Assembly (NCBI GenBank): GCA_022824735.1
Contig: JAJDZI010000136.1
Location: 1-49,235, forward strand
Direction of reading: 5' to 3'
Length of the DNA: 49,235 nt
From: Nitrospirales bacterium
Lineage (GTDB): Bacteria > Nitrospirota > Nitrospiria > Nitrospirales > UBA8639
Every line of letters starts with the position of its first letter. Within the stretch, counting starts at the first letter, position 1. Positions 17,083 to 43,617 of this stretch are shown one piece after another. A program made the translations under genes and the position numbers. The notes below the pieces were generated by a model. The model was not told the DNA's origin, did no database searches, and saw only the letters and a list, made by a program, of their open reading frames with translations.

Positions 17083-17215
17083 AGTCTGCCCATGGAATAG
17101 GATAGGGTAATTGCCAGCCGCGGCGGCTTTTCCCATCGGTTTCGCGAGAACGAACGGCCGCCCTTCTCCGACACGGTAAGAACACAAGAATCGCCCCAAT
17201 ACAAAGGAGGACACC

Positions 17216-17305: not shown

Positions 17306-17351
17306 TTGTCTGCGAACGTTCTGACTTGAACTCAACCCAAAGAGGATAGAG

Positions 17352-17831: not shown

Positions 17832-17857
17832 ACAGATGGGGCATAGGAGCAATTGCC

Positions 17858-18691: not shown

Positions 18692-18734
18692 GTTCTTATA
18701 TTTCATTACATCATTTCTTACAAAAGAGGATCTT

Positions 18735-19163: not shown

Positions 19164-19187
19164 CGTGAGCGCGCGGCGCCTCCTTCG

Positions 19188-20462
19188 TTGAAAAGCATTC
19201 ACCTCATTTCCACTGACTGGACGCGCGACGATCTTGTTCGGGAGACGAACCGGATCTTCGACGTGTGCGACGGCTGTCGCCGGTGCTTCAACCTGTGTCC
19301 GTCCTTCAACACGCTGCTGGACCGGATCGACGAGTACGAGAGCGACGTCTCCCTGCTGACCGCCGCGGATTACGAACGGGTCGAGAAGGAATGTTATTAC
19401 TGCAAGCTCTGTTACAACCACTGCCCGTACACGCCGCCCCATGACTACCAGATTGATTTTCCGCGACTCATGGCCGCGTGGAAAAAGCAGCGGGTCAAGG
19501 AACAGGGAGCGTCCTGGCGTGATCGCCTGCTGATCAAAACGGACCTGATCGGCAAACTGGGAAGCCTGACGGCCTCGCTGACCAACCGGGTACTCTCGAC
19601 GCCGTGGGTCCGGAGCCTGTTAGAGGCAATCATCGGCCTGCACCGGGACCGGCGCGTGCTCGCCTTTTCCCGGGAAAACTTTCCCGCGTGGTGGCGCAAA
19701 CAGGGTCCGGCGCTGCAACCCGCGGTCCCCAAGCATAAGGTCGTCGTGTTTCCGAGTTGCCTGGTGAATTATCAGGCCACCGATATCGGAAAAGCCACGG
19801 TCCAGGTCCTCGTCAAGAATAACGTGGAGGTCGTCGTCCCCGAGGGCCAACGCTGTTGCAGTATGCCCTCCTTTGATCTCGGCGATACCGAAACCATGGC
19901 GCAGACCGCCACGTACCATTTGCGATTGTTTCTGCCGTACCTCCGGCAAGGGTATGACCTCGTCGTTCCCACTCCCAGTTGCAGTCTCATGTTCAAACGG
20001 GAATATCCGTACCTGGTGCCGACGCGAGACATGGCCTTGTTGGCCGAACGCACGTTCGACGTCTGTGAATACCTGATGCGGCTCAAAAAAGACGGGGCGT
20101 TGTCCACGGAGTTCAGGCAGACGTCGCAACGCATCGCATATCAGGTCCCCTGTCATTTGCGTGACCAGAACATCGGTTTTAAATCCAAGGAACTCATGGA
20201 ACTCACGGGTGCCCGGGTCGAAGTCATTGAAAAATGTTCCGGCCACGACGGTTCATGGAGCGCCAAGGTGGAATTTTTCGATCAGTCCATGAAGATCGCC
20301 GGGAAGGCCGTCCGCGCGGTTTCCGATTGCGAGCCCGACCTGGTGGCATCGGATTGCCCGCTTTCGGCGCTGCAACTCGATCAGGCGGGAGCAACGCCGT
20401 CGAAACACGGAACCCGGCATCCCATTCAAATCGTTCGCGACGCCTACGACCTCCCATCATGA
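19188..20462 (+). CDS. Fe-S oxidoreductase with 2x[4Fe-4S] ferredoxin motifs and two CCG domains (HdrD/GlpC/GlcF-like)
   Basis: TTG start. [12 protein letters not shown] and [13 protein letters not shown] cluster motifs. CCG-type cysteines: [29 protein letters not shown]. Confidence 0.8.
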
Positions 20463-21043
20463 ACCCGTTGACCCCATCAGATCTTCTTTCCCACGAGGAA
20501 TACGAAGCCCAACGCGCGACGTTTCGACGGGAGACGATCGCCCTCAAAAAACGACGCCGGATCGAGGTCGGCCCCCTGGTGACGCTGGTCTTTGAGAATC
20601 GACAAACGCTGCTGTTTCAGGTTCAGGAAATGATTCGCGCCGAACGCATTTTCGAGCCGTCCAAAATTCAGGATGAGCTTGACGTCTACAATGCCCTGCT
20701 TCCCCGAACGGGCGAACTCAGCGCCACCGTGATGATTGAAATTACAGCCCAGGAGCGCATCAAGGAAATTCTGGACTCTTTCCAGCGGTTCGACCGGCCG
20801 AATACCCTGGCGCTTACCGTCAAAGAGCAAGCCGTGTTTGCCGACTTCGAAGCCGGACACAGCAAGGAAGACAAAATCAGCGCGGTCCATTTTGTGCGGT
20901 TTATGGTTCCGCCGGCTTTTGTGAACGTGCTTGGCGAGGATGAGTCTCATGCCGGTATCCGGATTACCCATGAGAACTACAAGGCAGAGGCGAACGTCCC
21001 ACCCGCCATGCGGGAAGAGTGGCTGAAAGACCTGCGCGCCTGA
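20459..21043 (+). CDS. DUF3501-family protein
   Basis: 194 aa. The ATG overlaps the upstream stop (ATGA). [62 protein letters not shown] matches my recollection of DUF3501, a family usually adjacent to rubrerythrin and HdrD-like genes. Confidence 0.7.
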   Translation: MNPLTPSDLLSHEEYEAQRATFRRETIALKKRRRIEVGPLVTLVFENRQTLLFQVQEMIRAERIFEPSKIQDELDVYNALLPRTGELSATVMIEITAQERIKEILDSFQRFDRPNTLALTVKEQAVFADFEAGHSKEDKISAVHFVRFMVPPAFVNVLGEDESHAGIRITHENYKAEANVPPAMREEWLKDLRA

Positions 21044-21073
21044 ATGTTTTTCATATTTTTCCTTTGACGGAAA

Positions 21074-21102
21074 TTGACAACCGCCAAGGGGGTGGTTATT
21101 AT
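21074..21102 (+). promoter_or_regulatory. Putative sigma70-like promoter for erpA
   Basis: TTGACA (21074-21079), 17-nt spacer, TATTAT (21097-21102). Confidence 0.35.
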
Positions 21103-21187
21103 TCACGTGCAAGAGGAAACGACCCCGGATTTTCGGGAATCCGGAAAACACGAGACCTGTTCATTTCATATTTGATTGGAGGGATCC

Positions 21188-21511
21188 ATGGTTACCATTA
21201 CCCCAATTGCCGAAGAGAAAATCAAAGAATTGATCCACGATGAGGAAGAAGAAGTCGTCGGGTTGCGAATCTACGTGAAGGGCGGCGGTTGCAGCGGCTA
21301 CCAATACGGGATGTCCTTTGAATCCAAAATGGACGACGACGACACGGTGATTGAAAAAGGCGAGGTCAAAGTCATTGTGGATTCGCAAAGCGCCCCCATG
21401 CTGAGCGGCGCGGAAGTCGATTACGTCGACAGCCTGCAAGGCTCCGGGTTTGCAATCAAGAACCCGCAAGCGAAAAGCACGTGCGGTTGCGGCAGTTCCT
21501 TCAGTACCTGA
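21188..21511 (+). CDS. erpA: A-type iron-sulfur cluster carrier/insertion protein (ErpA/IscA/HesB family)
   Basis: GGAGGG Shine-Dalgarno. YVKGGGCSGYQYGMSFE and the C-terminal NPQAKSTCGCGSSF are close to the E. coli ErpA pattern. Confidence 0.85.
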   Translation: MVTITPIAEEKIKELIHDEEEEVVGLRIYVKGGGCSGYQYGMSFESKMDDDDTVIEKGEVKVIVDSQSAPMLSGAEVDYVDSLQGSGFAIKNPQAKSTCGCGSSFST

Positions 21512-21533
21512 TCGCAGCCTCTTCGAGTTCAAC

Positions 21534-21580
21534 AAGGCCAGGACTTCTGCCTCTCGGCGGAACTCCTGGCCTTTTTCTTA
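21534..21580 (+). terminator. Rho-independent terminator after erpA
   Basis: 10-bp stem AAGGCCAGGA (21534-21543) / TCCTGGCCTT (21564-21573), followed by TTTCTT. Confidence 0.6.
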
Positions 21581-21605
21581 GGATCCCGATTCCGTTCATT
21601 TGCGC

Positions 21606-22391
21606 ATGACACGATCGACCCTCACGAAACGCATAGAATTTTCCGCTTCGCACCGGTACTTCAAGGCCGAGTGGGACGAGGAGCGCAACAGACGGGTCTT
21701 CGGCCCCTGCTTCCGGGAGCATGGGCACAATTACCTGCTTGAAGTGACCCTCGGAGGGCGGGTCGATCCCATCACGGGCATGATCATCAATCTGTACGAC
21801 CTGAAGCACATCGTCACGAACGTGCTCGAAGAGTTCGACCACAAACACCTCAACTACGATATGCCCTATTTTGAACGGATCGTGCCCACCACTGAAAATC
21901 TGGCCCTGGTGCTATGGCGGAAGTTTTGTGAGCGCCCGGAGACCCGGGACATTGCATCGATACGGCTTTGCGAAGGAGAAGACCTGTGGGTCGAGCTCTT
22001 TCAGCCGAATAACCCTGCCTCGCAGGACAATGCGGAACCGGCCGAGGCCCTGCTGACTCGCCGATACGCCCTGACGGTGCGGCGAGATGCCGATACTTCC
22101 CACGTGGAAACGTGGCCCCTTTCCCTGAACGTCACGACTCAAGGCCCGATAGACCCCGTCACGGGTCGCGTCACGAATATCGCAGCATTGGATGAGCGGG
22201 TCCAAGGGCAAATCCTCAACAGCCTCGCGGACACGAATGTGTCGCAACTTCAGGAATTGGCCGGCCGGCCGGTTACCCTATCCACCTTGGCCAAAATCCT
22301 TTGGTCCAGGCTGCGCAACATTGCCGATGCCCGCCTCGCACGACTCCGGCTCACGGACCACCACGACCTGACCCTGGATTATTCTGAATAA
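21606..22391 (+). CDS. queD: 6-carboxytetrahydropterin / 6-pyruvoyl-tetrahydropterin synthase family protein, tandem double T-fold domain
   Basis: The N-terminal domain has FSASHRY, GPCFREHGHNYLLEV and ITGMIINLYDLK (Zn-His triad plus catalytic Cys). The C-terminal about 110 aa repeat the fold pattern (DPVTGRVTNIAALD) without the HGH motif. Confidence 0.75.
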   Translation: MTRSTLTKRIEFSASHRYFKAEWDEERNRRVFGPCFREHGHNYLLEVTLGGRVDPITGMIINLYDLKHIVTNVLEEFDHKHLNYDMPYFERIVPTTENLALVLWRKFCERPETRDIASIRLCEGEDLWVELFQPNNPASQDNAEPAEALLTRRYALTVRRDADTSHVETWPLSLNVTTQGPIDPVTGRVTNIAALDERVQGQILNSLADTNVSQLQELAGRPVTLSTLAKILWSRLRNIADARLARLRLTDHHDLTLDYSE

Positions 22392-22525
22392 GCCGGCGGG
22401 CCGTTGGTCGGTTGTCGTAGTGCGAATTCCCCGGCTTTCGCTGAATTGCCTCACTATTACAATCTAAGCACAAAATTTAAATAGCAAGGTTTGTTATTGC
22501 GAAACTCTGAATAAGGACTGTCGTC

Positions 22526-22738
22526 ATGAAACGTGGGGAAAGCGGCAGATATGAGGTAACAAACATCAGCGGTGAACACGTTCGCGCCTTTGTGCCAGCG
22601 CCGCTTCCGCCGAAACCCAATCTCGTTCTGGACGGCTCGCCGCAACAGATGCTCGAAGCGGCGGTGCTTGCCCTGGGCCGCCTCGACGGCGTAGCAACCC
22701 TCCTGCCGGATGAGACGCTTTTTCTGTATGCCCGAGGC
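22526..22738 (+). pseudogene. Fic-family protein fragment (N-terminal Fic_N region only)
   Basis: GRYEVTNISGEHVRAFVPAPLPPKPNLVLDGSPQQMLEAAVLALGRLDGVATLLPDETLFLY matches the conserved Fic N-terminal domain. It breaks off before the expected EAxxSSxIEG and HPFxxGNGR motifs. The ORF then runs on to 22915 in unrelated sequence. Confidence 0.6.
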
Positions 22739-22778
22739 GTCGTGAAATTAAGTGTCTTGTATATCCGGCCGTCAGGCA

Positions 22779-22859
22779 CACGATACCGAGTACATCCACC
22801 GCCACAGCAAGAACGGCTACGAGGTGGAGCACATCTGGGCCAACAAACCCGAACGCCAA
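22779..22859 (+). pseudogene. Short remnant of a DUF1524 / GmrSD-like nuclease gene
   Basis: TEYIHRHSKNGYEVEHIWANKPER in another frame resembles the YEVEHIWA..PER block of DUF262/DUF1524 proteins. Only about 27 codons are recognisable. Confidence 0.35.
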
Positions 22860-22948
22860 AGCCTGTCATCGAGATTTGGCATTGGAGAATGGTGTCCATG
22901 GCGGCCATATTGTAAATTGAATTGCACTATGCTAGGCTCGCAAAGCCG

Positions 22949-22984
22949 CATAAGGTGCCTTTACATAAGGTGCCTTTACATAAA
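22949..22984 (+). repeat. Tandem 15-nt repeat (CATAAGGTGCCTTTA x2 plus a partial third copy) directly upstream of the RiPP precursor gene
   Basis: Units at 22949-22963 and 22964-22978 are identical, and CATAAA follows. The AGGTGCCT core recurs a third time at 22997-23004, overlapping the Shine-Dalgarno of the precursor. Confidence 0.85.
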
Positions 22985-23005
22985 TTCTTGTAGGGGAGGT
23001 GCCTC

Positions 23006-23272
23006 ATGGTTTCTATGAAAGAAGCGCGGGACCGTCTGATTGAAAAAGCTTCATCGGACGATGCATTTCGGACTCTCTTGATCAACGATCCCAGAAAGGC
23101 CGTTGAAGAAGAATTTGGGGTGACGTTACCCGATAGCTTTTCCGTCACGGTGCATGAACAAAGTCCAACTGAAGCACATCTGGTTCTGCCACCGGCAGTA
23201 AAACTGGAGGAAAGGGATTTAAAGCTCGTTTCTGGTGGGTTACCCTGGTGTAGTAGTGGGGGTTGTTGGTAA
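23006..23272 (+). CDS. NHLP (nitrile-hydratase-like leader peptide) family RiPP precursor; predicted core LPWCSSGGCW
   Basis: 88 aa. The leader (DAFRTLLINDPRKAVEEEFGVTLPDSFSVTVHEQSPTEAHLVLPP) follows the NHLP pattern. A double-Gly site (LKLVSGG, 23234-23239) precedes a 10-residue Cys/Trp core (23240-23269). The dedicated NHLP exporter trio is encoded alongside. Confidence 0.85.
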   Translation: MVSMKEARDRLIEKASSDDAFRTLLINDPRKAVEEEFGVTLPDSFSVTVHEQSPTEAHLVLPPAVKLEERDLKLVSGGLPWCSSGGCW

Positions 23273-23289
23273 AGAAAAGAGGCGTTTAC

Positions 23290-23721
23290 ATGGATATCGA
23301 TCAGGCGATGACACAGGTTGCCTCACTGGACTTTACAATGCTGAAGCGAAAGCTTGAGGTCGCAGGAGGCTGGTCCGCCGATACCGTGGCGGAAGGTGAA
23401 CACCTGTACCGCAAATATCTTGCCCTCAAGATGGTATATCCGAAAAAGACGATAAGCCCGACTCAACTCATCGACGAGTTCTGGCATGCGCATATTCTCG
23501 ATACGAAAGCCTACACAACCGATTGTCAAAAGCTATTCGGGAGATACTTACATCACTACCCTTATGGCGGCAGACTGAGCGAGGACGTCCTCGATCATGC
23601 GCTTGGTGAAGCCCGAAAGGAAGAAACTCGCAAGTTGTTCCTGCGGCACTTCCATATTGATCTGCAATTCTCTCTCCCCGACAATCCACCTGACGGCGAC
23701 AGGCCCCAGTCGCAAGAATAA
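23290..23721 (+). CDS. Small His-rich protein, GRDP-like (DUF1399-type) motif; candidate RiPP tailoring or accessory protein
   Basis: 143 aa from the ATG at 23290, 18 nt after the precursor stop. EFWHAHILDTKAYTTDCQKLFGRYLHHYPYGG resembles the WHxHxL...Y..DC...G..LHH signature I associate with glycine-rich-domain-protein-like (PF07173) proteins. Confidence 0.55.
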   Translation: MDIDQAMTQVASLDFTMLKRKLEVAGGWSADTVAEGEHLYRKYLALKMVYPKKTISPTQLIDEFWHAHILDTKAYTTDCQKLFGRYLHHYPYGGRLSEDVLDHALGEARKEETRKLFLRHFHIDLQFSLPDNPPDGDRPQSQE

Positions 23722-23810
23722 CCGACTGGGACCTGAGCTGTGGACCGGCTTCCACGAATCTCGCCCTTGCCCTTCCCAATGCATCCATCCCCAAAGGCCG
23801 AGTTGCCGTC

Positions 23811-24914
23811 ATGACTGACCCAGACAGTCATTTTCACGTCGACTCGGAGCGTCAAACCGCAGAAATACATGATTGCGGGACGGTCTTGCGCAGCCTGCGT
23901 TCGCTTGTACCGGACGGACTCGTCGATAGTCTCGAATGGGAACGTCTCGCAGGTCGTGCAGATGGTCTCTCTGCATCGATTGTCGGCCTGGAATTTCGGC
24001 TTGGCGACCCCACGCCAAACGCCGATTTCCTGCTCGGCCTTGTGCCGGGAAGCTGGGCTGAACAGACCTGCATCCGTCGAGGGCAAGAGGCGCCACCTGA
24101 TTCTCCGGAAGCTTTTCTCGCCAACTATTTGGCTCAAATCCGGGATGCCGAATTTCCGGAGGCAGCCCTGATCGCGACAACCATACTCGAATACGATGTG
24201 GGACTTGTCCCCGGTGACGACCGGTGGCCTCCTCCCGGAGTGTTTCAAAAGCTCAAGAATCCCTTTTCACAGAATGTGGGCATTCGTGAGGCAGAGGTCG
24301 CCGCTCGCATAGCCTCCGCGATCAGTTGGGCCGTCGGGCGATCCGACGATGCACAAGAAAGCGCCGCCATTCGGAAAATGGTTGCCGCACTACCAGTGGA
24401 CAGCCAATTGACATGGATCGGCGCAATGCCTGGACGGGACCCCAGAATGATTCGACTGTTGTTCGATGTTCCTGACGCCGATGGGCTGATGGACGATCTG
24501 CAACGGATCGGATGGCCTGGACCGACTGAAATGGTCGCCTCAACTCTTGACGCCATCAACGGTCAGTTCGAGCGACTTGCGATTCAATTGGAGGTATCGG
24601 CGCAAGGCGTGTTGCCCAGACTGGGCCTTGAGGTTTACGTACTTCCTAAGCACCCGTACGGTTTCGCTGATTGGAGCAGGGCACCAAACCCTGGCTTATG
24701 GCGCCCAATTCTTTCCCGATTGGAGGACACCGGCTGGTGCTTGCCGCAGAAGGCGAGCTGTTTGCTGGCGTTCCCCGGACGAGAATACATCTTCGATAAT
24801 GGAATCTTCCTCGTACACAAAAACATCAATCACGTCAAAATTTCCATTGAAGCCAGTCAGGCGCGCGAGGCCAAGGCCTACGTCTTCATGAAGTTTCAAC
24901 CGGCCACTGCGTGA
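23811..24914 (+). CDS. Hypothetical 367-aa protein, no family recognised; candidate RiPP tailoring enzyme (possible five-fold alpha-beta-beta-alpha barrel)
   Basis: Intact ORF in the same operon orientation as the precursor. Five strand-pair-like segments are separated by amphipathic helices: VGLEFRLGD..DFLLGL, TILEYDVG..GVFQKL, LTWIGA..MIRLLFDV, LAIQLEV..LGLEVYV, GIFLVHK..HVKISIE..AKAYVFMKF. Confidence 0.6.
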   Translation: MTDPDSHFHVDSERQTAEIHDCGTVLRSLRSLVPDGLVDSLEWERLAGRADGLSASIVGLEFRLGDPTPNADFLLGLVPGSWAEQTCIRRGQEAPPDSPEAFLANYLAQIRDAEFPEAALIATTILEYDVGLVPGDDRWPPPGVFQKLKNPFSQNVGIREAEVAARIASAISWAVGRSDDAQESAAIRKMVAALPVDSQLTWIGAMPGRDPRMIRLLFDVPDADGLMDDLQRIGWPGPTEMVASTLDAINGQFERLAIQLEVSAQGVLPRLGLEVYVLPKHPYGFADWSRAPNPGLWRPILSRLEDTGWCLPQKASCLLAFPGREYIFDNGIFLVHKNINHVKISIEASQAREAKAYVFMKFQPATA

Positions 24915-24999
24915 GCGGGCAGGACGACACCCCACACCATACATTGCACCCGGCGTATGAGAAGGCAGTTGGTGCGCCCGCAGATGAGGATCGTTTCGC

Positions 25000-27936
25000 T
25001 CAGGTGGTCTGCCGAAGCATCAGGCGGCGGAACAAGCCTTCAGCCTCGAACAATTCATCGAATCCACCCTGTTGGATGACCTTGCCCCCATCCAGCACAT
25101 AGATTCGGTCCGCCTTGCGGATGGTAGAAAGCCGATGAGCAATAACAATTCGCGTGGCCGAGAGGTTTTCGATGCCGCGCATGACCCTGGCCTGGCTGTC
25201 GGTATCGAGCCAGTTGGTCGCCTCGTCAAGAAAGACGATTCGCGGGCGCCGGGCAAGAGCCGATGCAACTCGGATTCGTTGCGCTTGACCGCCCGAAAAA
25301 ATCGCGTCACTGGCGCCCACAAGCGTGTACATCTGCATAGGCATGGCCGTGATTTCGTCATCAACGGCAGCGAGATGGGCAGCACGCCAAGCGTCCTCTT
25401 CAGTCAAGTCACCCAACGATCCGGTGATATTACTCAGAATGTTCCCAGGCAACAACACCCCATCCTGCATCACCACGCCGATCTGTCGGCGAACGGCACG
25501 CTGGTTGAGGTGCTTGAGATTACGCCCATCATACTCAACAGCTCCGATCACGGGTTGTTCAAGCCCGAGCGCAAGCTGCAGCAACGTCGTCTTGCCGGCT
25601 CCGGACTCCCCCACGATGGCAACAAATTCACCGGGATTGACGTGGAGCGAGACGTCATCAAGAATCAGCGGAGAATATTGCGAATAGCGGAAGCTGACAT
25701 GGTCGAAATGGATCTCACCCCGGAGTTTGGAGGACGGGTTTCCCGCCGAAGGCGTTTCCGGAACGGCTTCCAGGATTGGCTGGATCTGTTTGTAATCCAG
25801 GATTGGCTGGATCTGTTCGTAACCGGGGATGATCATGGCCACCGCCTCGAAGGACTGTCCCAGCCTGGCAACGGCTTCGTAAAAGATCATCGAGGCTGCA
25901 AAGACAGCCAGAAAATCTCCAGTCTCGATGCCACCGGGACCGCGAGACACTGCCACCCCAATGATAATCCCTCCGGCCAGCAAAGGAATTGCCCCACTGG
26001 CAGCCACCAGATGATCGCTCAGCCGACCGGTTTCAAGTTCGGCATTTTTCTGCTCACAATACCTGCGCGACCAAGCCGCGGTGGCAGCCTTTTCGGCTCG
26101 GCTGAGCCGCAGTTTGTGTATCCCGTTGATGAAAGCCAGCAAGCCGCCTGTCAGCCGACGCGAAGCCTCATGCAACCGTCGCTGTGGATTCTTCTGGCGC
26201 AGGCCGAACGTGACCGCGGCGGCGGCACCACACACACCAATGACGAAGCTGACCCAGCCCAAAACCAGATCGTAGAGAAAAATCAACGAAAATGCAGGCA
26301 ACAAGAACAGGGTCGACAGGGCGGCATTGGCCACCATACCGGCAATCAAGTCGCGCAGGGCTTGGAACGTCATGACCCGCACGGCAAGGTCGCCGGCCGT
26401 GAAGCGTCTGAAGAATGCCAGTGGCAGCCCGAGAAGACGGTCCCAGAGCGCAGCACCTGCCGACGTGACTACCCGGCCTTCGATACGCATCAACGCCGTG
26501 CCCTGCAGCATCTGAAACAGCGAACCGATCAGCGCTGCTGCAATCATGGCCGTGATCGTGGAAATGAGGGACGCAAGAGAACCACTCGGTATGATCTCGC
26601 CCGTCACCAATCCCACCGCCACGGCCGGGGCAAGCGTCAGGAACCCGCCAAGCAATCCGACCGTGACAAAGCGACACATGCTGCCAACCAAGCCGCGCGC
26701 TGCAAAACGAGTCAGACTTTTCAGCCCGATCTGACCGTCCGGAAACGGTCGGTAAAACATCCACGCTTGACCGTCCAAGGTTTGCGCTGTGGTTGCATTG
26801 GCGGGCTCAGAATGTCCCGTAACGGGATCGATGATTCGGTAGCGGGTCGCACCGGGAACCAACGCCACGGCGCTTCGGTCGCTTTTGCGAAAGCCCAACA
26901 TGGCGCCACTGTCGCCAATCCACCACCGCTCTTCCGGAATCAATTTGACCGAACGGCAACGTACGCCGGAGGCATGCAGAATCGCCTGCAAGGAAGAAAC
27001 AACACTGCTATCCTCACCCGCCGGCGCGGTAGGCATTCGGAACGTCAATCCTTCATGACGACCGACCACCTCAAGGGCCGCCTCCAGGGCCGACGCCTGA
27101 CTCCGATCGGTCGCATCTGCGCTGGCCTGCAGCGAACGGTACAGGGCCGTGCGTGCTTGCGCCTCGTCACGTTCGCGGAAATCGGCAAGGGCGACGTCCT
27201 GATTGGCCACGTCGACCAGCAAAAGCAGGCGATTGGTATGCTCAGCGCGAAGAAGCAGGTGATGGTATTGAGCAAGAGACGGGAACAACAAAGATTTTTG
27301 GTGCAGCGTTTCCGAGTCGGCACCGGCAACGTGCCCTGGGCTCGTGACAGCCAACCAGCTCTCCGGTGTCAAGGGCAACCATCCTGTCCCGTCCTGGCCC
27401 AGCTCTTCGGTATCAAGGAAGGTCGCGGACAGGCCTTGGGTGGCGGCCCATACCACGCCATGCCGGCTTGCAAGAATGCTCCCGGCAGCAAGGTTTTGAG
27501 TCGCTCCGGGGTGAAGCATGGCGTTGGGATCGCGATGCAACGTGATATCACGGTGAACGGCCGCCGTCATGTCTATGATCCATTGCTCCACTTGATTGAT
27601 CAATGCTTCGGCAGGAACGGCTTTCTGCAACGCCTCAAGCGGAAGAACGCGAACGGTCGAGTTGGGTAGGCCTTTCGCCATGACAATCAGTGAATCCGCC
27701 GTATTCCCGGCAATGCCGAAAACGAGACGACCCGGACCGGCACGAAGCATGTGCTTCAGGCTTGAATCCGGCAAGCCCTCCCGGGAATCTGCGATAAAGA
27801 CGTCCAGTGCGCCGGATTCAACAAACCATGCCGTTCCCGGGTCGTCGAGCCGGATGGGCCGGTTGTTGCCGCCGGTGAACAACGTGCCAAGCGTGCTGAT
27901 GACCTGCGACATATTGCTGGGCGGTTGGGTGGACAT
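25000..27936 (-). CDS. NHLP-type bacteriocin export ABC transporter, permease/ATPase subunit with N-terminal cyclic-nucleotide-binding-like domain
   Basis: 978 aa. N-terminal cNMP-like beta-roll (AWFVESGALDVFIADS). A 6-TM exporter domain. NBD with GESGAGKTT (Walker A), FSGGQAQR (signature) and IVFLDEAT (Walker B). The architecture matches the second ABC component of NHLP/Nif11 export systems. Confidence 0.85.
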   Translation of the reverse strand: MSTQPPSNMSQVISTLGTLFTGGNNRPIRLDDPGTAWFVESGALDVFIADSREGLPDSSLKHMLRAGPGRLVFGIAGNTADSLIVMAKGLPNSTVRVLPLEALQKAVPAEALINQVEQWIIDMTAAVHRDITLHRDPNAMLHPGATQNLAAGSILASRHGVVWAATQGLSATFLDTEELGQDGTGWLPLTPESWLAVTSPGHVAGADSETLHQKSLLFPSLAQYHHLLLRAEHTNRLLLLVDVANQDVALADFRERDEAQARTALYRSLQASADATDRSQASALEAALEVVGRHEGLTFRMPTAPAGEDSSVVSSLQAILHASGVRCRSVKLIPEERWWIGDSGAMLGFRKSDRSAVALVPGATRYRIIDPVTGHSEPANATTAQTLDGQAWMFYRPFPDGQIGLKSLTRFAARGLVGSMCRFVTVGLLGGFLTLAPAVAVGLVTGEIIPSGSLASLISTITAMIAAALIGSLFQMLQGTALMRIEGRVVTSAGAALWDRLLGLPLAFFRRFTAGDLAVRVMTFQALRDLIAGMVANAALSTLFLLPAFSLIFLYDLVLGWVSFVIGVCGAAAAVTFGLRQKNPQRRLHEASRRLTGGLLAFINGIHKLRLSRAEKAATAAWSRRYCEQKNAELETGRLSDHLVAASGAIPLLAGGIIIGVAVSRGPGGIETGDFLAVFAASMIFYEAVARLGQSFEAVAMIIPGYEQIQPILDYKQIQPILEAVPETPSAGNPSSKLRGEIHFDHVSFRYSQYSPLILDDVSLHVNPGEFVAIVGESGAGKTTLLQLALGLEQPVIGAVEYDGRNLKHLNQRAVRRQIGVVMQDGVLLPGNILSNITGSLGDLTEEDAWRAAHLAAVDDEITAMPMQMYTLVGASDAIFSGGQAQRIRVASALARRPRIVFLDEATNWLDTDSQARVMRGIENLSATRIVIAHRLSTIRKADRIYVLDGGKVIQQGGFDELFEAEGLFRRLMLRQTT
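25770..25823 (-). repeat. 27-nt in-frame tandem duplication inside the ABC transporter gene
   Basis: Units 25770-25796 and 25797-25823 differ at 2 positions. They encode ...EQIQPILDYKQIQPILE... in the TMD-NBD linker. Confidence 0.9.
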
Positions 27937-27960
27937 GGGCTCCTTCGCCTTGCCGTGTGG

Positions 27961-30186
27961 TTACAAATCAGCCACGTGAACCAGACGGTGATACATCCCA
28001 CCGTCGTCCGCAAACAATTCCTCATGTGTGCCGCGCTGTATTTCCCGGCCACGGTCCAGAACGATGATCTGGTCGCAGTCACGGATGGTGCTGAGACGAT
28101 GCGCGACAATGATGCTCGTACACCCGCGTCGCCTGACCGCATCATCGACGCGTTGCTCGCTCAGCACGTCCAAGGCGCTGGTTGCCTCGTCGAGCAGAAG
28201 CACGGACGGGTCCCGGACCAAGGCGCGGGCAATTTCGAGGCGCTGTCGCTCTCCTCCGCTGAAGTTTCGTCCGTCCTGTTCAACCGGCGAATCGTATCCT
28301 CCCGGACGCGACATGACGACGTCGTGCATGAGGGCGTCCTGTGCGGCACTGACAAGTTGCGGTCTGGCAATTGTCGGATCCCAGAGGGTCACATTATCAC
28401 GAACCGTGCCTTCGAAGAGGCTGATTCGCTGATCGACCATGGAAACTGAGCCCGCCAGAATTTGCCGAGGGATCACGTTGACCGGCGCGCCATCAATCAG
28501 AATTTCGCCGGACCAAGGCGCGTACATTCCGCTTAAGAGGAGTAGCAAGGTTGATTTTCCTGACCCGGATGTTCCAATCACGGCGACTCGTTGACCGACG
28601 TCAACCGTCAGGCTGACCCCGTTGATGAGCGGCGGGGCATTGCGCTGGTAGCCGAAGACGACGTCACGCATTTCAATGCGCCCTTTCAGACGCAGCCGGC
28701 CACGGAACTTTGCCAGCGAGCCCGAGATTGACTTGTGATCCTCGATGACCATCGGATCCTCAGATGCCGACAGGACGTCATCGAGTCGTTGAAGGTCAGC
28801 TTCCATTGTCTGGAACAAATCGGCGAACAGGACAAGCCGGCCAACCGGGCGCAGAAAGTTTCCGGCAATGACGTAAAAGCCCATCAACTGACCAAGCGTC
28901 ATCTCCCCGGACATGGCGTGCCAACCACCAAAACCCAGAACGGCCGCGCCGCCGATAGCCAGCGCGAGGTTCGGCAACGAGGACGTGACGTGTCCCAATT
29001 CCGAGAAACGCTGGCGGGCGAGAAATTCACGGGCCTGATAACCGGTCCAGCGAGCGAAGAACTCGTCTTCGTGGCCAGTTGCCTTGAGCGATCTGATGTT
29101 TCTTAAACCAAACATCGCCGTGCCGTTCAGGAGCCCCTGCTCATGCTTCATCTGCCGGTTCTCGTCGGTCCTGCGTACGGAAATGAACTTCATTAATCCG
29201 GCTGAAGCCACACCAATGCCCGCCACGGCCAGGGCCAGGGCCGGGGCAAAGGCGACCATTAATCCCAGGAAGAGCACGCCCATGACCAATTCGACTGTGA
29301 TCCCCACCACTTGTATCGAGCCAACCGTCGCAACCTGATCGATCAGACGAGCCCGCTGAATCAGGTCGCCCGGGTAGCGGTAACAAAAGTATTCTATGGG
29401 TAGCCGGAACAGACGCGTGAGAAAGTGGTCGGAGTGAATAATCGAAAGACGCACGGCGAGCCGGCGCAGACACCGTCGATGCATCCACGTTAGAACATAG
29501 ACAAAGAGAGCGGCAATAAGGGCAGCAGCGACCAGGGAGGGGGCCCAGCCGACTTCGCCACCGCCTAGTACGTGGTCGATGAAGATAATCAGCAGCAAGG
29601 GCAGAACGAGTCCCGACAAAGCCAAAAAAAATCCGCTCAGGGCGGCAAAACCGAGTGACTGCAGGTCATGACTCAGCCACGGCCAGAACCTCCGCAAGAC
29701 TCCTGGCCGTGTGCCGCCGGTGCGGAACTCGGCACCTGGCTGCAACGACAGGACAACGCCGGTAAAGTCGCGATCGAAGGTGTCGGCGCTGACGGTCCGC
29801 CGACCAATTGCCGGGTCATTCAGATAAAAACAATCATTGCCCACCCCTTCAAGAACCACGAAGTGGCTGAAACTCCAAAACAGGATAAGGGGAAGCGGCA
29901 TACGCGAAAGGTCTCTCGGCTCCTTGCGCCATCCTTCAACTTCCAAACCATACGATCTCGCCGCGCGGACAAGGTCTGCCGCGTTGCAACCATCTCGCCC
30001 AACGGCGCAGGCCTCGCGCAGTTCCTCAAGCGAAGCATAGCGCCCAAAATAGGCAAGGACGCTGCACAGGCAAGCGGCGGCGCATTCGGTAGCCTGGACT
30101 TGTAAAAACAGTGGCGTGCGCAATCGTGGGCGGAAGAGCATGCGCAACCATTCGCTGAGTCTTGATACGAAAATAGCCAACGACAC
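27961..30186 (-). CDS. NHLP-type bacteriocin export ABC transporter with N-terminal C39 double-glycine peptidase domain
   Basis: 741 aa. C39 motif LQVQATECAAACLCSVLAYFGRY (catalytic Cys). Exporter TMD. NBD with GTSGSGKST, FSGGERQR and VLLLDEATS. Confidence 0.9.
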   Translation of the reverse strand: MSLAIFVSRLSEWLRMLFRPRLRTPLFLQVQATECAAACLCSVLAYFGRYASLEELREACAVGRDGCNAADLVRAARSYGLEVEGWRKEPRDLSRMPLPLILFWSFSHFVVLEGVGNDCFYLNDPAIGRRTVSADTFDRDFTGVVLSLQPGAEFRTGGTRPGVLRRFWPWLSHDLQSLGFAALSGFFLALSGLVLPLLLIIFIDHVLGGGEVGWAPSLVAAALIAALFVYVLTWMHRRCLRRLAVRLSIIHSDHFLTRLFRLPIEYFCYRYPGDLIQRARLIDQVATVGSIQVVGITVELVMGVLFLGLMVAFAPALALAVAGIGVASAGLMKFISVRRTDENRQMKHEQGLLNGTAMFGLRNIRSLKATGHEDEFFARWTGYQAREFLARQRFSELGHVTSSLPNLALAIGGAAVLGFGGWHAMSGEMTLGQLMGFYVIAGNFLRPVGRLVLFADLFQTMEADLQRLDDVLSASEDPMVIEDHKSISGSLAKFRGRLRLKGRIEMRDVVFGYQRNAPPLINGVSLTVDVGQRVAVIGTSGSGKSTLLLLLSGMYAPWSGEILIDGAPVNVIPRQILAGSVSMVDQRISLFEGTVRDNVTLWDPTIARPQLVSAAQDALMHDVVMSRPGGYDSPVEQDGRNFSGGERQRLEIARALVRDPSVLLLDEATSALDVLSEQRVDDAVRRRGCTSIIVAHRLSTIRDCDQIIVLDRGREIQRGTHEELFADDGGMYHRLVHVADL

Positions 30187-30194
30187 CCCAATTT

Positions 30195-30219
30195 GTCATT
30201 CCGCGCGAAGCGAGGAATC
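30195..30219. repeat. REP-like element GTCATTCCGCGCGAAGCGAGGAATC between the HlyD and ABC genes
   Basis: Imperfect palindrome (ATTCC..GGAAT). Shares the TGTCATTCC box with the element at 13648. Confidence 0.4.
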
Positions 30220-30251
30220 TCTTCCTAGTCCGGTTCTGCTTTCCGTCGACA

Positions 30252-31148
30252 TCAGCTCGCGTCTTCTTTGAATAGCATACGTAACAGGGAGATTGGCGGC
30301 CTGATAAACCAAGCATGGCAATGGGTGCCATTCGGGATGGAAAGTCCTGGAACTTCTTGCAGTGGTGCACGTACGAAGTGGCTGCGGGACGCGGCGACAA
30401 AACCGTGCTCAGAGAGCCACGGCGGCACCGCGACAGGTTGTGGCGATACGGCTGCAACTTCGGCTCCCAGCCAGTCGGTATCGCTCCGTCCTGGCACGAC
30501 CGCAATTCGCGCACGCATGCCGGGCGTGATGACGTCTGCGCTTTCAGGCGGCACAAAGGCCAACGCCTCCAAACGATGATCCGAGCCGGTTCGAATTCGG
30601 CCAACCACCGACCCGGCCTCGACTACCTGTCCCGGCACCAGCGACAGAGTCGCGACCTCGCCGGATTCAGGACTGGTCAGCACCGCGCTCGTTTCCAGCA
30701 GGGCTTCCACTGCGAGCAACTCCGCGCGAGCGACGGCAAGCCCGCCCTTGTCAGGGTTCGCGGCAATGCCTGGCGTCTGCTCCAGCAACGCGATTCGTGC
30801 CCGTGCCACCCGTGCCCGATGTATCAGTTGCGTGGGGTTGATCCTTGCGATCCGCTGTTCGTGTTCGACCCGTTCGCCGTTACGGACCAATACTTCGACA
30901 ACGGTACCGGATTCCGGTGAGATGATTGCATGGCGCTGACCAGGCATTGCAAGGATGCAGGTCGCTGCGACTTTCCGCTCGATGCTGCCCAAAATCACCC
31001 AAGCCGCGACGGACAGCAAGGCGATTGCCAAGGCGCAAAGAATGATCCATTCTCGCGGCGCAGTCACTCGAAGCAGGGAATCAAGAGGTTCCGCCTTCCC
31101 CCTAAGGGTCATGGCCTTCTCTCGAAACAGGCGGTTCTTAAACAGCAC
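30252..31148 (-). CDS. NHLP bacteriocin system secretion protein (HlyD-family membrane fusion protein)
   Basis: GTG start preceded by AGGGGA. N-terminus LFREKAMTLRGKAEPLDSLLRVTAPREW followed by a TM helix, then coiled-coil and beta-barrel segments typical of HlyD-type adaptors. First gene of the exporter operon. Confidence 0.85.
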   Translation of the reverse strand: MLFKNRLFREKAMTLRGKAEPLDSLLRVTAPREWIILCALAIALLSVAAWVILGSIERKVAATCILAMPGQRHAIISPESGTVVEVLVRNGERVEHEQRIARINPTQLIHRARVARARIALLEQTPGIAANPDKGGLAVARAELLAVEALLETSAVLTSPESGEVATLSLVPGQVVEAGSVVGRIRTGSDHRLEALAFVPPESADVITPGMRARIAVVPGRSDTDWLGAEVAAVSPQPVAVPPWLSEHGFVAASRSHFVRAPLQEVPGLSIPNGTHCHAWFIRPPISLLRMLFKEDAS

Positions 31149-31358
31149 TGCTACTGTCCCCTACAGATCCGGTTGTCTCTCCCAGCGGGAAACAACCTGC
31201 AAAAAGAAGCAAGGGATTCGCCCATGGACTCATTTCCGCTTCCACCAACCCGGAAGAACGGCATCGAACAACGGGCCTCTCATTGAGGGGCTGAAGTCTA
31301 GCATACGCAGTTCCAATATCCAAGCGCAGGGACCCGTTACTCTCGGTACAACAAACTC

Positions 31359-31387
31359 TTGACATTGTTTGATTTTCGTATTATGTA
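31359..31387 (+). promoter_or_regulatory. Putative sigma70-like promoter of the tra (MPF-F) operon
   Basis: TTGACA (31359-31364), 17-nt spacer, TATGTA (31382-31387), in an AT-rich patch of the divergent intergenic region. Confidence 0.4.
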
Positions 31388-31419
31388 CTGTTAGGTCTAA
31401 TATTGCTTGCGCACCCGTC

Positions 31420-32265
31420 ATGTTCATCATCCTCACTATTGTCGCTGTTTTCGAGTTGTCCGGGTGTTCGGCTCCTCTCGCACCTGGTTCCGTCACACAA
31501 CAGGACCATTCGGGTCAAACGCCGTCCCTTGCTCGTAATCAACAGGTGTTGTGCCGCACAAACAGTCATCTTTATCCCTGCATCATCACTTCCCCAAAAA
31601 CGCCTCTCACGCCGGCGTCCCGGGTGCCCGCCGCTTCTTCCGGCGGACCTTCAACGTCACCACTCATAACTCATCATGACCCACCGGAGACGGAGGCGCA
31701 CTTGGCAGAACATGAAAACATTGCGATCCGGCTCCAGGAAATCACATCGACACTCGAACCCCTTCTCGCCAATCTGTCAAAGCCTGAATCTCCGCATCCG
31801 CTGCCTGACGCGCACCAGCCGGCTGCCGGCAAGTCATCCAAAAAAGAGGTCGTCCCTGCCCGGGATTCAGATCGCCCGGTTCCACAACAGAAGCTCAGGG
31901 GCAGGCTCCTGGCGTCCGTGTATTTCTCCTCGAACAGCACCGAACTCGCGCCCTCGGAGAAGATCGTTTTAATCGATCTTCTCCCTGTAGTCCGCGACAA
32001 ACAACTCCTGTTTGTCGGCTACTCCGACCGCGCCGGTGACGACAATGCCGATGCACGCTTGTCCTACAAGCGAGCGCGGACCGTCAAAGCCTTCTTTGCG
32101 CAAACCGGACACGACCCGGGCAAGCTCTTCGCCGGAGGGAAGGGTTCATGCTGTGACAAAACCGAGGGGAACACCCCCACCGGACGGCAACGGAACCGGC
32201 GCGTTGAAATCTATCACGCCCTCGAACGGCTTCGGCTTCAATCGCCACCTTTCAGCAAGGAGTAA
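31420..32265 (+). CDS. OmpA-family peptidoglycan-binding lipoprotein
   Basis: Preferred start MFIILTIVAVFELSGC (lipobox LSGC); the ORF is also open from 31369. C-terminal OmpA-like domain: VYFSSNSTELAP...LLFVGYSDRAGDDNADARLSYKRARTVKAFF...NRRVEIY. Confidence 0.75.
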   Translation: MFIILTIVAVFELSGCSAPLAPGSVTQQDHSGQTPSLARNQQVLCRTNSHLYPCIITSPKTPLTPASRVPAASSGGPSTSPLITHHDPPETEAHLAEHENIAIRLQEITSTLEPLLANLSKPESPHPLPDAHQPAAGKSSKKEVVPARDSDRPVPQQKLRGRLLASVYFSSNSTELAPSEKIVLIDLLPVVRDKQLLFVGYSDRAGDDNADARLSYKRARTVKAFFAQTGHDPGKLFAGGKGSCCDKTEGNTPTGRQRNRRVEIYHALERLRLQSPPFSKE

Positions 32266-32269
32266 CGCC

Positions 32270-32563
32270 ATGAAAGCCATCCATCTTTACTGTTTTTTCC
32301 TTTTTCTGTTCTTCTTCCTCATCCCTGCCACCGCCATTGCGGCTACGACGGGAGCCGACTTTCAAGACTTGTATGACTTCTTCTACGAGGCCGCCACCGG
32401 ATATCTCGGGCGCGCCATTGCCATCGTCGGCGGACTCATGGGCCTCGGCGTCGGGGCCGCCACCGGCAAACCCATTCCGGCCTTGATGGGTATCGTACTT
32501 GCCGTCTTCGGGACACTTGGTCCCACGTTGATCAATAACCTGTTCAGCAGCGCGACAATCTAG
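32270..32563 (+). CDS. traA: Conjugative pilin precursor (TraA/VirB2-like)
   Basis: AAGGAG Shine-Dalgarno. 97 aa. Signal peptide ending ATAIA/A. The mature part is about 73 aa with two Gly/Ala-rich hydrophobic helices. Sits immediately upstream of traL, as in F. Confidence 0.6.
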   Translation: MKAIHLYCFFLFLFFFLIPATAIAATTGADFQDLYDFFYEAATGYLGRAIAIVGGLMGLGVGAATGKPIPALMGIVLAVFGTLGPTLINNLFSSATI

Positions 32564-32565
32564 TC

Positions 32566-32865
32566 ATGGATAACGAGAACATGGAAGATTACTGGATTGG
32601 CCGGAACCTCGACGCTCCCCAATTATTTTTCATGTGGGAAGCCGATCGCGCGTATTTTGCGATGCTGTGGGTCCTGGGCGGCATGCTCCTGGGCTCGACG
32701 GTTCTCGGCGTCGTGGCGGCCATGATCTTCGGACGCCTCTACGCACAGATCAAGGAGGAAGGGGGCAAAGGACTCTTGCCGCGCATCCTGTACTGGCACA
32801 CCCCCTCCTCTTTATGGCTTTCCTCTTATCTACCATCCTACTCACGGGAATTCCTCGGACGGTGA
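32566..32865 (+). CDS. traL: Type-F conjugative transfer protein TraL
   Basis: 99 aa. LDAPQLFFMWEADRA, one TM helix, then KEEGGKGLLPRILYWHTP...PSYSREFLG. This is co-linear with F TraL (..KKGRGSSWLRDLIYWYMP..). Confidence 0.8.
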   Translation: MDNENMEDYWIGRNLDAPQLFFMWEADRAYFAMLWVLGGMLLGSTVLGVVAAMIFGRLYAQIKEEGGKGLLPRILYWHTPSSLWLSSYLPSYSREFLGR

Positions 32866-33470
32866 ACAAGGAAAAATATCTTTCAGCGCTTACCAGCGCC
32901 AACTATAAAACCGCCGTCTGGATGCTCGTTGCCGGCGTCCTCCTGATGACGAATCTCCTTCAAGCGCTCTTTCTCTTCACCGCTGATCTCACGGAAAAGA
33001 CCATCGTTGTTCCCCCTGATCTCGTCAAGCCGTTTTCCATCCACAAGAGCAAGGTCAGCCCCGCCTACGTCGAGCAGATGACCCATTATCTCAGCCAGCT
33101 CCTGCTCACCTACCACGACGATAACGTGACGGCTCAATTCGACTCCGTCCTTCGACACGTTGACCCCGCGGCTTACGCACACCTCAAAGCTGAATTCCAT
33201 GCGCAAGCCGAGCGCATCCGGCGCCACCTGATCGGCTCCGTGTTCTATCCCATGGGCATCCACGTCGCCAAATTGACTGCCACCATCAATGGCGAGCTCG
33301 TCAGTATGATTGGGCAAAAAATCGTCTCGCGCAAACAGAAGTACTACCAATTCGACTACGCCTACCGGAACGGCTCATTCTATCTGGTGAAATTCCAAGA
33401 ACTCGAAAAGGGACCGGGGGAAGAACTCAAACCCATTGAACCCAAGGAAGATGAGGAGGTGACTTTCTGA
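32862..33470 (+). CDS. traE: Type-F conjugative transfer protein TraE
   Basis: The GTG overlaps the traL stop (GTGA); an alternative ATG is at 32814. N-terminal TM helix followed by a periplasmic domain co-linear with F TraE (about 190 aa). Position between traL and traK. Confidence 0.7.
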   Translation: MNKEKYLSALTSANYKTAVWMLVAGVLLMTNLLQALFLFTADLTEKTIVVPPDLVKPFSIHKSKVSPAYVEQMTHYLSQLLLTYHDDNVTAQFDSVLRHVDPAAYAHLKAEFHAQAERIRRHLIGSVFYPMGIHVAKLTATINGELVSMIGQKIVSRKQKYYQFDYAYRNGSFYLVKFQELEKGPGEELKPIEPKEDEEVTF

Positions 33471-34198
33471 TGATTCGTCTTGCCCTCCCCTGTCTCTCTA
33501 CCCTTCTGCTCTTTCCGGGCGCAGCAGCCGGCATTCAGAATTTCACGGTCCGTGACGGTGCCAGTATCACCGCCATTATCTCGTCACATGAACTGACCCG
33601 GGTGACGGTCGCCGGCAGCCAACGCCTGGAAAAGGTCTGGGCGCCGGCCGGGACGTTATGGGTTCAGCCCGATGAGGCACAAGGCGATATCTTTATCAAG
33701 CCCGTGGCCGGCGCTCCGGCGACCATGAGCTTCTTCGTCCGTGACGGTGCCGGTGGCACGTATACGATCATCGCTCAGCAGCGCGACGTCCCATCTGAAA
33801 CGATTCTTCTGAACCCCGAGTTACCGGCGCGCCGGGCGAATCCGCGCCAAACCGGACGGCAGTCTTTCTCCTACGTCCGGGAAATCAAGCGTCTCATGCT
33901 CGCCATGGCACTCGACCGGGAGACCAAGGGGTTCACGAAAGACACGCACGACGTTCCTGTGCCGTTCTGGAAGGAAACCCGGATCGTCCACACCGGCACC
34001 TACACCGGCTCTCGCTTCATTGGCCAAGTCTATGAAATCGAAAATCTCACCAGCCAGCCGCTCACGTTCCATGAACAGGAATTCCTTGCCTTCATTCCCG
34101 ATACCCGAGCGGTCGCCCTCCGCCACTTCACGCTCCCTGCGGGCACGTCCACGTCGCTCTATATTGTTCGCGACAATGCCATGAGGATCGAACCATGA
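33470..34198 (+). CDS. traK: Type-F conjugative transfer secretin-like protein TraK
   Basis: 242 aa (the same length as F TraK, as I recall it). Has a signal peptide, overlapping start and stop codons, and the conserved position between traE and traB. Confidence 0.7.
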   Translation: MIRLALPCLSTLLLFPGAAAGIQNFTVRDGASITAIISSHELTRVTVAGSQRLEKVWAPAGTLWVQPDEAQGDIFIKPVAGAPATMSFFVRDGAGGTYTIIAQQRDVPSETILLNPELPARRANPRQTGRQSFSYVREIKRLMLAMALDRETKGFTKDTHDVPVPFWKETRIVHTGTYTGSRFIGQVYEIENLTSQPLTFHEQEFLAFIPDTRAVALRHFTLPAGTSTSLYIVRDNAMRIEP

Positions 34199-38437: not shown

Positions 38438-38453
38438 CATTGAACAGGACACC

Positions 38454-43592: not shown

Positions 43593-43617
43593 GTCTAATT
43601 GGACTCCAAGATTTCCA

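Follow-up and report, generated by a model that had tools for sequence, protein, structure and literature searches.

Precursors of ribosomally made, post-translationally modified peptides (RiPPs) that carry an NHLP leader form a family (TIGR03793) for which Haft 2010 is reportedly the reference. Prenylation of peptides by enzymes of the ABBA fold is known from the F-type prenyltransferases of the cyanobactins (PagF, LimF, KgpF and PatF), which are leader independent, act after PatA/PatG processing and modify peptide side chains. Another enzyme of this fold, NctPC, is said to come originally from Hubrich et al. 2024. It is a cyanobacterial fusion of an ABBA prenyltransferase with a terpene cyclase, transfers a geranylgeranyl group onto Trp and has low similarity to the cyanobactin prenyltransferases (PMC13290415). 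MppC of Moorena producens acts on a Nif11 lanthipeptide, is obligately leader dependent and geranylates Trp at C5 (PMC12715784). PalQ prenylates the C-terminal Trp of PalX, an NHLP-leader precursor, with the leader enhancing turnover; PalQ and ComQ have the all-α isoprenoid-synthase (trans-IDS-like) fold with a FARM motif and belong to a quorum-sensing cluster that includes a histidine kinase (PMC10853753). Here we describe a six-gene NHLP locus at positions 23006-31148 of a 49,235-nucleotide stretch of DNA from a Nitrospirales bacterium (contig JAJDZI010000136.1; the whole stretch is called the window below), in which a short precursor peptide is followed by two further open reading frames, ORF2 and ORF3. 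The explanation that we favor, and consider probable, is that the product is a peptide prenylated by ORF3 with the help of ORF2, and then cleaved and exported by a C39-type transporter.

All six genes were found at the coordinates first given for them. The precursor gene (23006-23272, + strand) is preceded by a GGGGAGG ribosome-binding site and encodes 88 amino acids. The peptide has the NHLP-type leader and the double-Gly site that the original prediction had described: residues 5-78 matched TIGR03793 (profile positions 3-77 of 77) with 67.9 bits against a cut-off of 50.9. As read from the sequence, the leader (23006-23239) ends in LKLVSGG, a Gly-Gly type motif, and is followed by the short core LPWCSSGGCW (23240-23269) and the stop codon (23270-23272). 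Orthologous precursors beside ORF3 relatives in three other loci, L001-L003, have the cores GGCWSY and GGCWA. At 22950-22979, about 27 bp 5' of the start codon of this gene, the 15-bp unit ATAAGGTGCCTTTAC stands twice in tandem as a perfect direct repeat, with ATAAA after it; a regulator might bind there.

Relatives of ORF3 were compared in 31 loci, comprising the window, 19 genome loci found by a scan with an alignment of 20 closer ORF3 sequences, and 11 loci from further assemblies. An NHLP precursor was found near the ORF3 relative in all 31. The hosts of the 19 genome loci are metagenome-assembled genomes (MAGs) of Nitrospirales, Arenicellales, Nitrospinota, Rhodobacteraceae and Azotimanducaceae; here the precursor was at most 10 kb from the ORF3 relative in every case, and directly upstream of it in 15 of the 19. 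One of the 11 further loci, on a contig for which NCBI names the ORF3 relative Methylobacterium sp., represents a large subfamily of 372-aa proteins. The closest relative, L001 from a Nitrospirales MAG, has an identical six-gene order with 68-85% identity. Co-occurrence with NHLP precursors, which had been proposed as a check, was thus found throughout for ORF3 and in 10 of the 31 loci for ORF2. We conclude that this is a RiPP cluster of the NHLP type with both ORF2 and ORF3 as members: every locus examined has its ORF3 relative beside an NHLP precursor, and in a distinct subset of these loci a relative of ORF2 is found again.

These counts bear directly on an alternative in which the peptide is exported essentially unmodified, with at most a Cys4-Cys9 disulfide, and ORF2 and ORF3 are unrelated neighbors or immunity or regulatory proteins. 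The two Cys residues of the window core fit such a product, as does the lack of a maturase recognizable by hidden Markov models (HMMs). A scan of the locus for promoter and terminator consensus sequences, listed on the same side, speaks neither way: nothing clear rose above shuffled background, so that a single precursor-ORF2-ORF3 transcript is neither supported nor contradicted. The linkage in 31 of 31 loci across all the lineages named above argues against an unmodified peptide, and so do the enzyme fold and the conserved charged barrel residues of ORF3 described below. Moreover, no internal disulfide is possible in the single-Cys orthologous cores GGCWA, GGCWSY and GGCWPR. Export with only a disulfide, one of two outcomes considered in the original prediction, is therefore very unlikely, and we put the chance of an unmodified product close to negligible.

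ORF3 (23811-24914, + strand) encodes a protein of 367 aa that had been described as not assignable to any family. This remained true of the profile libraries, whereas a search by fold placed it among the ABBA prenyltransferases. An AlphaFold2 model, calculated from a 35-sequence alignment, had a pLDDT (predicted local distance difference test) of 91.1 and a pTM (predicted template modeling score) of 0.91. Its secondary structure is built from repeated strand-strand-helix-helix units, with five strand-pair/helix-pair repeats. When the model was compared with the PDB by Foldseek, ranks 1-42 were exclusively ABBA prenyltransferases, with a best E of 2e-6 and a probability of at least 0.99 for ranks 1-39. 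The matches included AnaPT, AmbP1, IptA, CloQ, CdpNPT, 5-DMATS, PriB and NphB as well as the peptide enzymes PatF, LimF, KgpF and DciF, and many indole prenyltransferases were among the best of them. By structure, ORF3 thus appears to be a very divergent ABBA-fold prenyltransferase, and we propose it as the maturase of the cluster. The earlier statement that the locus has no recognizable maturase is accurate for HMM libraries only.

Residue conservation in the ORF3 family was consistent with this assignment. Four residues, R209, W297, K343 and Y357, are invariant, and E61, D72, E127, D129, H341 and K355 are nearly so (at least 90%), in both cases down to 21% identity. On the predicted barrel strands, charged and aromatic residues form alternating i/i+2 pairs (E61/R63, E127/D129, H341/K343 and K355/Y357), to which R209 and R215 are added. 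We infer that these strand residues may line the barrel, an arrangement that fits diphosphate binding and catalytic acid/base functions. With a threshold of E ≤ 1e-3, an exhaustive profile search gave 3,817 representatives of clusters at 50% identity, 721 of which reached E ≤ 1e-30; the source names of the family read "hypothetical protein" throughout. Among the members listed, the sole Pfam domain was found in one FAD_binding_4-prenyltransferase fusion, P0059 (534 aa), the prenyltransferase part of which is truncated in the alignment. In P0186 (449 aa, partial) a C-terminus of a cyclase-like family is joined to an ORF3-type domain. P0275 (679 aa) was also considered as a cyclase fusion and was rejected, for it carries no Pfam domain, blastp did not match it to the cyclase-like proteins, and its N-terminal half bears ORF3-family motifs by eye; it resembles a tandem double prenyltransferase.

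Genes of isoprenoid metabolism accompany ORF3 relatives elsewhere. Class II terpene cyclases were found in related loci, and the cyclase protein of L020 matched squalene-hopene cyclase (SHC; 2e-12) and Pfam SQHop_cyclase_C (2.5e-13). A second cyclase-like family of 320-433 aa, with weak matches to SHC and drimenol synthase, recurs in L020, L025, L106, L107 and L111, and it is this family that is once fused to an ORF3-type prenyltransferase (P0186). A polyprenyl diphosphate synthase is encoded two genes downstream of the ORF3 relative in L025. In L024 the gene just upstream of the relative is for an FAD oxidase that has a cytokinin-dehydrogenase domain, and L109 adds a YcaO. In the window no terpene cyclase was found, and LanM was likewise absent; cyclases were seen only in the related loci. 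The predicted fold together with these isoprenoid neighbors points to prenyl transfer as the only well-supported function for ORF3.

The cores beside ORF3 relatives, like that of the window, are short, and they are diverse. Hypervariable cores occur in L020, L022 and L023, nearly all of them with CW at or near the C-terminus, and the Nitrospinota-type loci share the pattern (T/S)Q.W/M...FANAWNSLNQNS; other cores are HHEGDW, CGGSGSNW, WAPTSDSY, MDDCSSTYWFG, GNQVFCSGWL, FGQMPGEWI and LCCCW. A Trp is present in at least one core at 29 of the 31 loci, usually near the C-terminus, and on this ground we lean towards the Trp indole as the most likely prenyl acceptor in the window. Because genes for a cyclase and for a prenyl synthase are both missing from the window, we expect the peptide to carry a linear prenyl group that comes from the pool of the cell. 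In several clades a conserved His comes first after the GG/AG/AA site (HV.., HH.., HL.., HY.. or HE.. in L020, L024, L025 and L108), a feature not seen in the window.

ORF3 might instead be a prenyltransferase that uses the Cys thiol as acceptor, an S-prenylation with CaaX-like logic in which ORF2 would process the prenyl-Cys or the neighboring Trp. In the window's clade the Cys is as invariant as the Trp (GGCW in the window, L001-L003 and L107), a distant relative in L109 stands beside the Trp-less core LCCCGV, and the core of L111 is LCCCW. C-terminal Cys-rich motifs of this kind resemble eukaryotic prenylation signals (PMC10853753). However, cores with Trp and no Cys occur in the 14 Nitrospinota-type loci (L004-L017), in L018 and as two of the three cores of L024, and the indole enzymes among the best fold matches of ORF3 also speak for the Trp. 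We know of no report of S-prenylation by a peptide prenyltransferase of the ABBA fold. Overall, we regard the thiol as an unlikely acceptor.

ORF2 (23290-23721, + strand) begins 18 nt past the precursor stop codon. The ATG at 23290 is its true start, because the homologues begin there and an AAGAGG site precedes it, which gives a protein of 143 aa, as the original prediction had it. The accompanying label "GRDP-like" fared less well. P0060, a protein identical to ORF2, carries a precomputed assignment to PF27765 ("UCP032817-like"), as do 89 of 90 homologues among those listed, whereas the match of ORF2 to PF07173 (GRDP-like/DUF1399) was below the cut-off (E = 0.044; 14.9 bits against 22.7) and covered only the last 46 profile positions, so that the likeness to GRDP is a distant one. 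NCBIfam and PADLOC scans gave no usable match to ORF2. Its AlphaFold2 model is an all-helical bundle with a pLDDT of 87; Foldseek found nothing in the PDB below E = 3 for the model, and the ORF2-family profile had no match among PDB sequences at E ≤ 10. Literature on DUF1399/UCP032817, and on NHLP together with a glycine-rich-domain protein, yielded no biochemical work; for DUF1399/GRDP, only plant stress and growth phenotypes were found. In the family alignment W65, H66, H68, T72, Y75, D78, C79, H88, H89 and P91 are invariant, and with this His/Asp/Cys cluster ORF2 looks like a small metal-binding protein.

The distribution of ORF2 among the ORF3 loci suggested a connection with the core. ORF2 was found in the window, L001-L003, L020, L022, L023, L106, L107 and L108, and all ten have Cys-Trp or Cys-Ile-Trp near the C-terminus of the core. 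L106 serves as an internal control. Here ORF2 and a prenyltransferase come after one precursor (...SGCHGECIWVS), and a cyclase-like gene and another prenyltransferase after a second, divergent one (...FGQMPGEWI). In L020 and L108, ORF2 is duplicated alongside the precursor paralogues. The association of ORF2 with Cys-Trp cores is suggestive rather than proven, because the counts are not phylogenetically independent, ORF2 being confined to some three to four clades. We tentatively propose that ORF2 is a recruited accessory tailoring protein, probably metal dependent and specific for Cys-Trp cores, a role that is plausible though far from assured. Of the idea that the two ORFs form an undescribed tailoring system, the part concerning ORF2 (PF27765) survives, and ORF3 falls within a known enzyme superfamily with a known type of modification.

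Tailoring by ORF2 has its chief rival in a role in immunity or regulation, with ORF2 then being a self-immunity, metal-handling or regulatory protein carried with CW-type clusters. Such a role would agree with the lack of any fold or sequence relative of known function, with the purely phenotypic plant literature, with a CW core in L111 that is found without ORF2, and with the occurrence of most PF27765 members elsewhere, in the company of TauD, a methyltransferase and a UvrA-like gene. It accounts less well for the restriction of ORF2, among ORF3 loci, to C-W or C-I-W cores in ten of ten cases and at least three ORF3 clades, for the placement of its gene 18 nt behind the precursor and its duplication with precursor paralogues in L020 and L108, or for the invariant His/Asp/Cys set, which suggests a catalytic or metal site. 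We therefore consider a non-tailoring role for ORF2 somewhat unlikely.

The wider PF27765 family was surveyed in 80 metagenome loci, mostly from soil. Three neighbors recurred there: a TauD-type dioxygenase was encoded in 37 loci, a methyltransferase in 32, and in 24 a protein that is UvrA-like and about 1,400-1,560 aa long. Members of this wider family (about 161 aa; L021 8001-14337 and L026-L105) have a strictly conserved C-terminal motif, C-x-x-Q-x-C-P, and the gene usually heads a same-strand cassette with the methyltransferase, the TauD-type dioxygenase and the UvrA-like protein. The cassette has the appearance of a small module for biosynthesis or resistance that has not been described before, and the PF27765 protein itself might be the substrate of its own cassette.

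Some of the related loci are more elaborate than the window. L020 (5013-16800), L022 and L023 contain 10-11 NHLP precursor paralogues and L108 at least four, with near-identical leaders and hypervariable cores. The paralogues are interleaved with two to four prenyltransferase paralogues (one split or pseudogenised) and two to three PF27765 genes; up to two terpene-cyclase-type genes are present in these four loci, and a HupE/UreJ membrane protein in L020, L022 and L023. The multi-precursor cluster of the L020 type is combinatorial and library-like. In L111, a 433-aa cyclase-like protein (6700-8001) beside the ORF3 relative has an N-terminal NHLP-like domain of its own (MKKPINATERLLSRAGEDSGFRSRLLANPRDAIEREFGV...HVVLPP) fused to the cyclase-like part, and thus, to judge by sequence, an enzyme here incorporates a leader-like domain. 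In L110 (3380-7313), the precursor and the ORF3 relative are accompanied by four tandem genes encoding 316-326 aa, and two of these four match PF27522 ("YDMC").

Several observations weigh against prenylation by ORF3 with the help of ORF2. The TM-scores of the ORF3 fold matches were moderate (0.4-0.54), with a root-mean-square deviation of about 7 Å and identities of 8-16%. ORF3 had no match in Pfam or NCBIfam (E ≤ 0.1 for both) or in PADLOC, curated prenyltransferase families included, and the ORF3-family profile found no chain among PDB sequences even at E ≤ 10; given the fold matches, the relationship to prenyltransferases is thus visible only in structure. No prenyl-donor gene was found within the window's cluster. 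The cores of L025 (HLQTAGMYGGSRIVPHSH) and L109 (LCCCGV) have no Trp, hence the acceptor is not uniform across the ORF3 family. The loci examined span only a few clades, and the co-occurrence counts are not independent. For ORF2, L111 (LCCCW) is the only one of the 21 ORF3 loci without it to have CW, which means that ORF2 is not required for every CW core, and none of the 80 metagenome PF27765 loci had an ORF3 or an NHLP precursor, making the wider family uninformative on a RiPP role. In addition, RiPP proteins of the ABBA fold can be catalytically inactive, as PatF shows.

This last point leads to an alternative in which ORF3 has the ABBA fold and is no prenyltransferase, acting as an inactive PatF-like scaffold, as a leader-binding chaperone or in some other barrel chemistry. 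TM-scores of only about 0.5, with no detectable sequence similarity to characterized prenyltransferases, are what such a protein could give. On the other hand, the Arg, Lys, His, Tyr, Glu and Asp residues on the barrel strands are strongly conserved down to 21% identity, and terpene cyclases and a polyprenyl synthase are repeated neighbors, with one cyclase-prenyltransferase fusion. We see only a small chance that ORF3 is not a prenyltransferase.

The three remaining genes of the cluster encode the likely exporter, and each of the three models of the NHLP export system (TIGR03794, TIGR03796 and TIGR03797) was the best-scoring one for its protein. The trio named in the original prediction was borne out in full for one member. 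The C39-peptidase ABC transporter (741 aa; 27961-30186, - strand) passed TIGR03796 with 867 bits against a cut-off of 853 and contains Peptidase_C39 (9e-32). The second ABC permease/ATPase (978 aa; 25000-27936, - strand), with ABC_membrane and ABC_tran domains, had TIGR03797 as its best match, at 695 bits just below the cut-off of 709. The HlyD-type periplasmic adaptor (298 aa; 30252-31148, - strand) matched HlyD_3 (5e-14) and, as best NCBIfam model, TIGR03794, at 103.6 bits below the cut-off of 156.2, the protein being 298 aa against a 421-position profile; its orthologue in L001 is 81% identical, with the gene order kept. A cNMP-binding domain is expected in the second ABC subunit of an NHLP exporter. 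None was detected here, since residues 1-281 (27094-27936, - strand) had no Pfam match even at E ≤ 10, and the earlier label "cNMP-ABC" received no support. The exporter genes lie on the opposite strand and are convergent with the precursor operon, and therefore they are not co-transcribed with it.

In the pathway that we propose, the 88-aa precursor would be translated with its NHLP leader, a step that we count as established. ORF3, probably recognizing the NHLP leader as MppC does its own, would then move an isoprenoid from a prenyl diphosphate onto the C-terminal Cys-Trp of the core, most likely onto the Trp indole, with the Cys thiol as the alternative; the fold and the genetic linkage were observed, and we infer the activity of ORF3, the donor and the acceptor site from them. 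To judge from co-occurrence, ORF2 would act as an accessory tailoring factor needed only when the Cys stands directly or one residue before the Trp. Finally, to go by family membership, the C39-ABC transporter would cut off the leader behind Gly-Gly and, jointly with the second ABC protein and HlyD, carry the product out of the cell.

The cluster is bounded upstream by housekeeping genes (HdrD-like, DUF3501 and PTPS) and downstream by an OmpA-like gene followed by F-type transfer genes, so the boundaries drawn for it in the original prediction were right. The conjugative transfer genes (32634-48977, + strand) are TraE, TraK, TraB/TrbI, TraC and TraG_N with a lysozyme domain; the run begins about 1.5 kb past the HlyD gene, and the RiPP cluster thus abuts a conjugative element. 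A second biosynthetic locus in the window consists of a modular type I polyketide synthase of 3,443 aa (3306-13637, + strand), with the domains KS-AT-DH-cMT-ER-KR-ACP followed by another KS that has a C-terminal domain like that of CurL; the next gene (13869-14810) is for an α/β hydrolase. At 15253-17082 (+ strand) a 609-aa protein is encoded whose sole Pfam match is a nitroreductase-family domain and whose N-terminus we take to resemble SagB-type dehydrogenases. A YcaO/SagB route to the RiPP through this gene was rejected, as the gene is 6 kb from the precursor with housekeeping genes between, and no YcaO is present.

What is new here is a very large unannotated clade of likely prenyltransferases linked to NHLP precursors, the association of PF27765 with Cys-Trp cores, and the prospect that uncultured Nitrospirales-like bacteria may make lipidated Cys-Trp peptides of very small size. 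Thousands of "hypothetical" proteins beside NHLP precursors would be structure-recognizable prenyltransferases that current HMM libraries miss, and for this reason antiSMASH or RODEO would score their clusters as lacking a maturase. The family may offer leader-guided catalysts for the lipidation of very short linear cores, with ready-made partners (terpene cyclases, an oxidase and a YcaO) in related loci. Most hosts are uncultured MAGs of Nitrospirales, Nitrospinota and Gammaproteobacteria, so the products would be unexplored natural products. The link between PF27765 and Cys-Trp provides a testable handle on a family without known biochemistry that is distantly related to the plant GRDP domain. 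A more far-reaching reading, which we offer as speculation and think rather unlikely, is that PF27765 is a new metal-dependent RiPP tailoring family that acts, jointly with a large clade of unannotated ABBA prenyltransferases dependent on the leader, on a minimal Cys-Trp pharmacophore at the C-terminus; it might, for instance, join the thiol of the Cys to the indole that bears the prenyl group or to the chain of that group. If this were true, the product would be a very small (2-10 residue) lipidated and cross-linked peptide of a type not yet described, and the GRDP/DUF1399-related fold, which plants share, would have its first biochemical function.

Compared with the described systems, the locus is no new RiPP class. 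The original prediction overstated the case in proposing one, as leader-dependent ABBA prenylation of NHLP/Nif11 peptides was already known in 2024-2025 (NctPC, PMC13290415; MppC, PMC12715784). The likeness to MppC lies in these features: a soluble ABBA prenyltransferase (here predicted), a long structured leader of the Nif11/NHLP type, a Trp indole as (here predicted) acceptor, and Gly-Gly leaders in export-type clusters. However, MppC works after macrocyclization by LanM, whereas the window has a PF27765 partner and no lanthionine synthetase, and its core is a short linear peptide ending in Cys-Trp; the comparison of the two systems is one by description. With NctPC the ORF3 family shares a low similarity to the cyanobactin prenyltransferases and, as we predict, Trp of a RiPP as acceptor. 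Its members also have class II terpene cyclases or a polyprenyl synthase as neighbors in related loci, and one is fused to a cyclase-like domain; the likeness is again one by description. The window cluster has PF27765 in place of a cyclase, and consequently no polycyclic isoprenoid is expected from it, unlike NctPC. The cyanobactin F family has its fold in common with ORF3, and PatF, LimF and KgpF were among the Foldseek matches, but the ORF3-family profile found none of their chains (E ≤ 10) and ORF3 matched no Pfam or NCBIfam model. PatA/PatG-type subtilisin proteases were not found among the genes of 13869-33470, and the precursor is of the NHLP and not the cyanobactin type. PalQ and ComQ resemble the proposed system in the logic of the product, a small peptide with a prenylated C-terminal Trp. 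In contrast, ORF3 is predicted to be a β-barrel ABBA protein, has no polyprenyl_synt match and adjoins an ABC exporter trio. The window system is thus distinct from these relatives by four traits: no LanM or cyclase, a minimal (GG)CW core, a PF27765 partner, and a prenyltransferase, as assigned by its fold, that is missed by curated HMMs.

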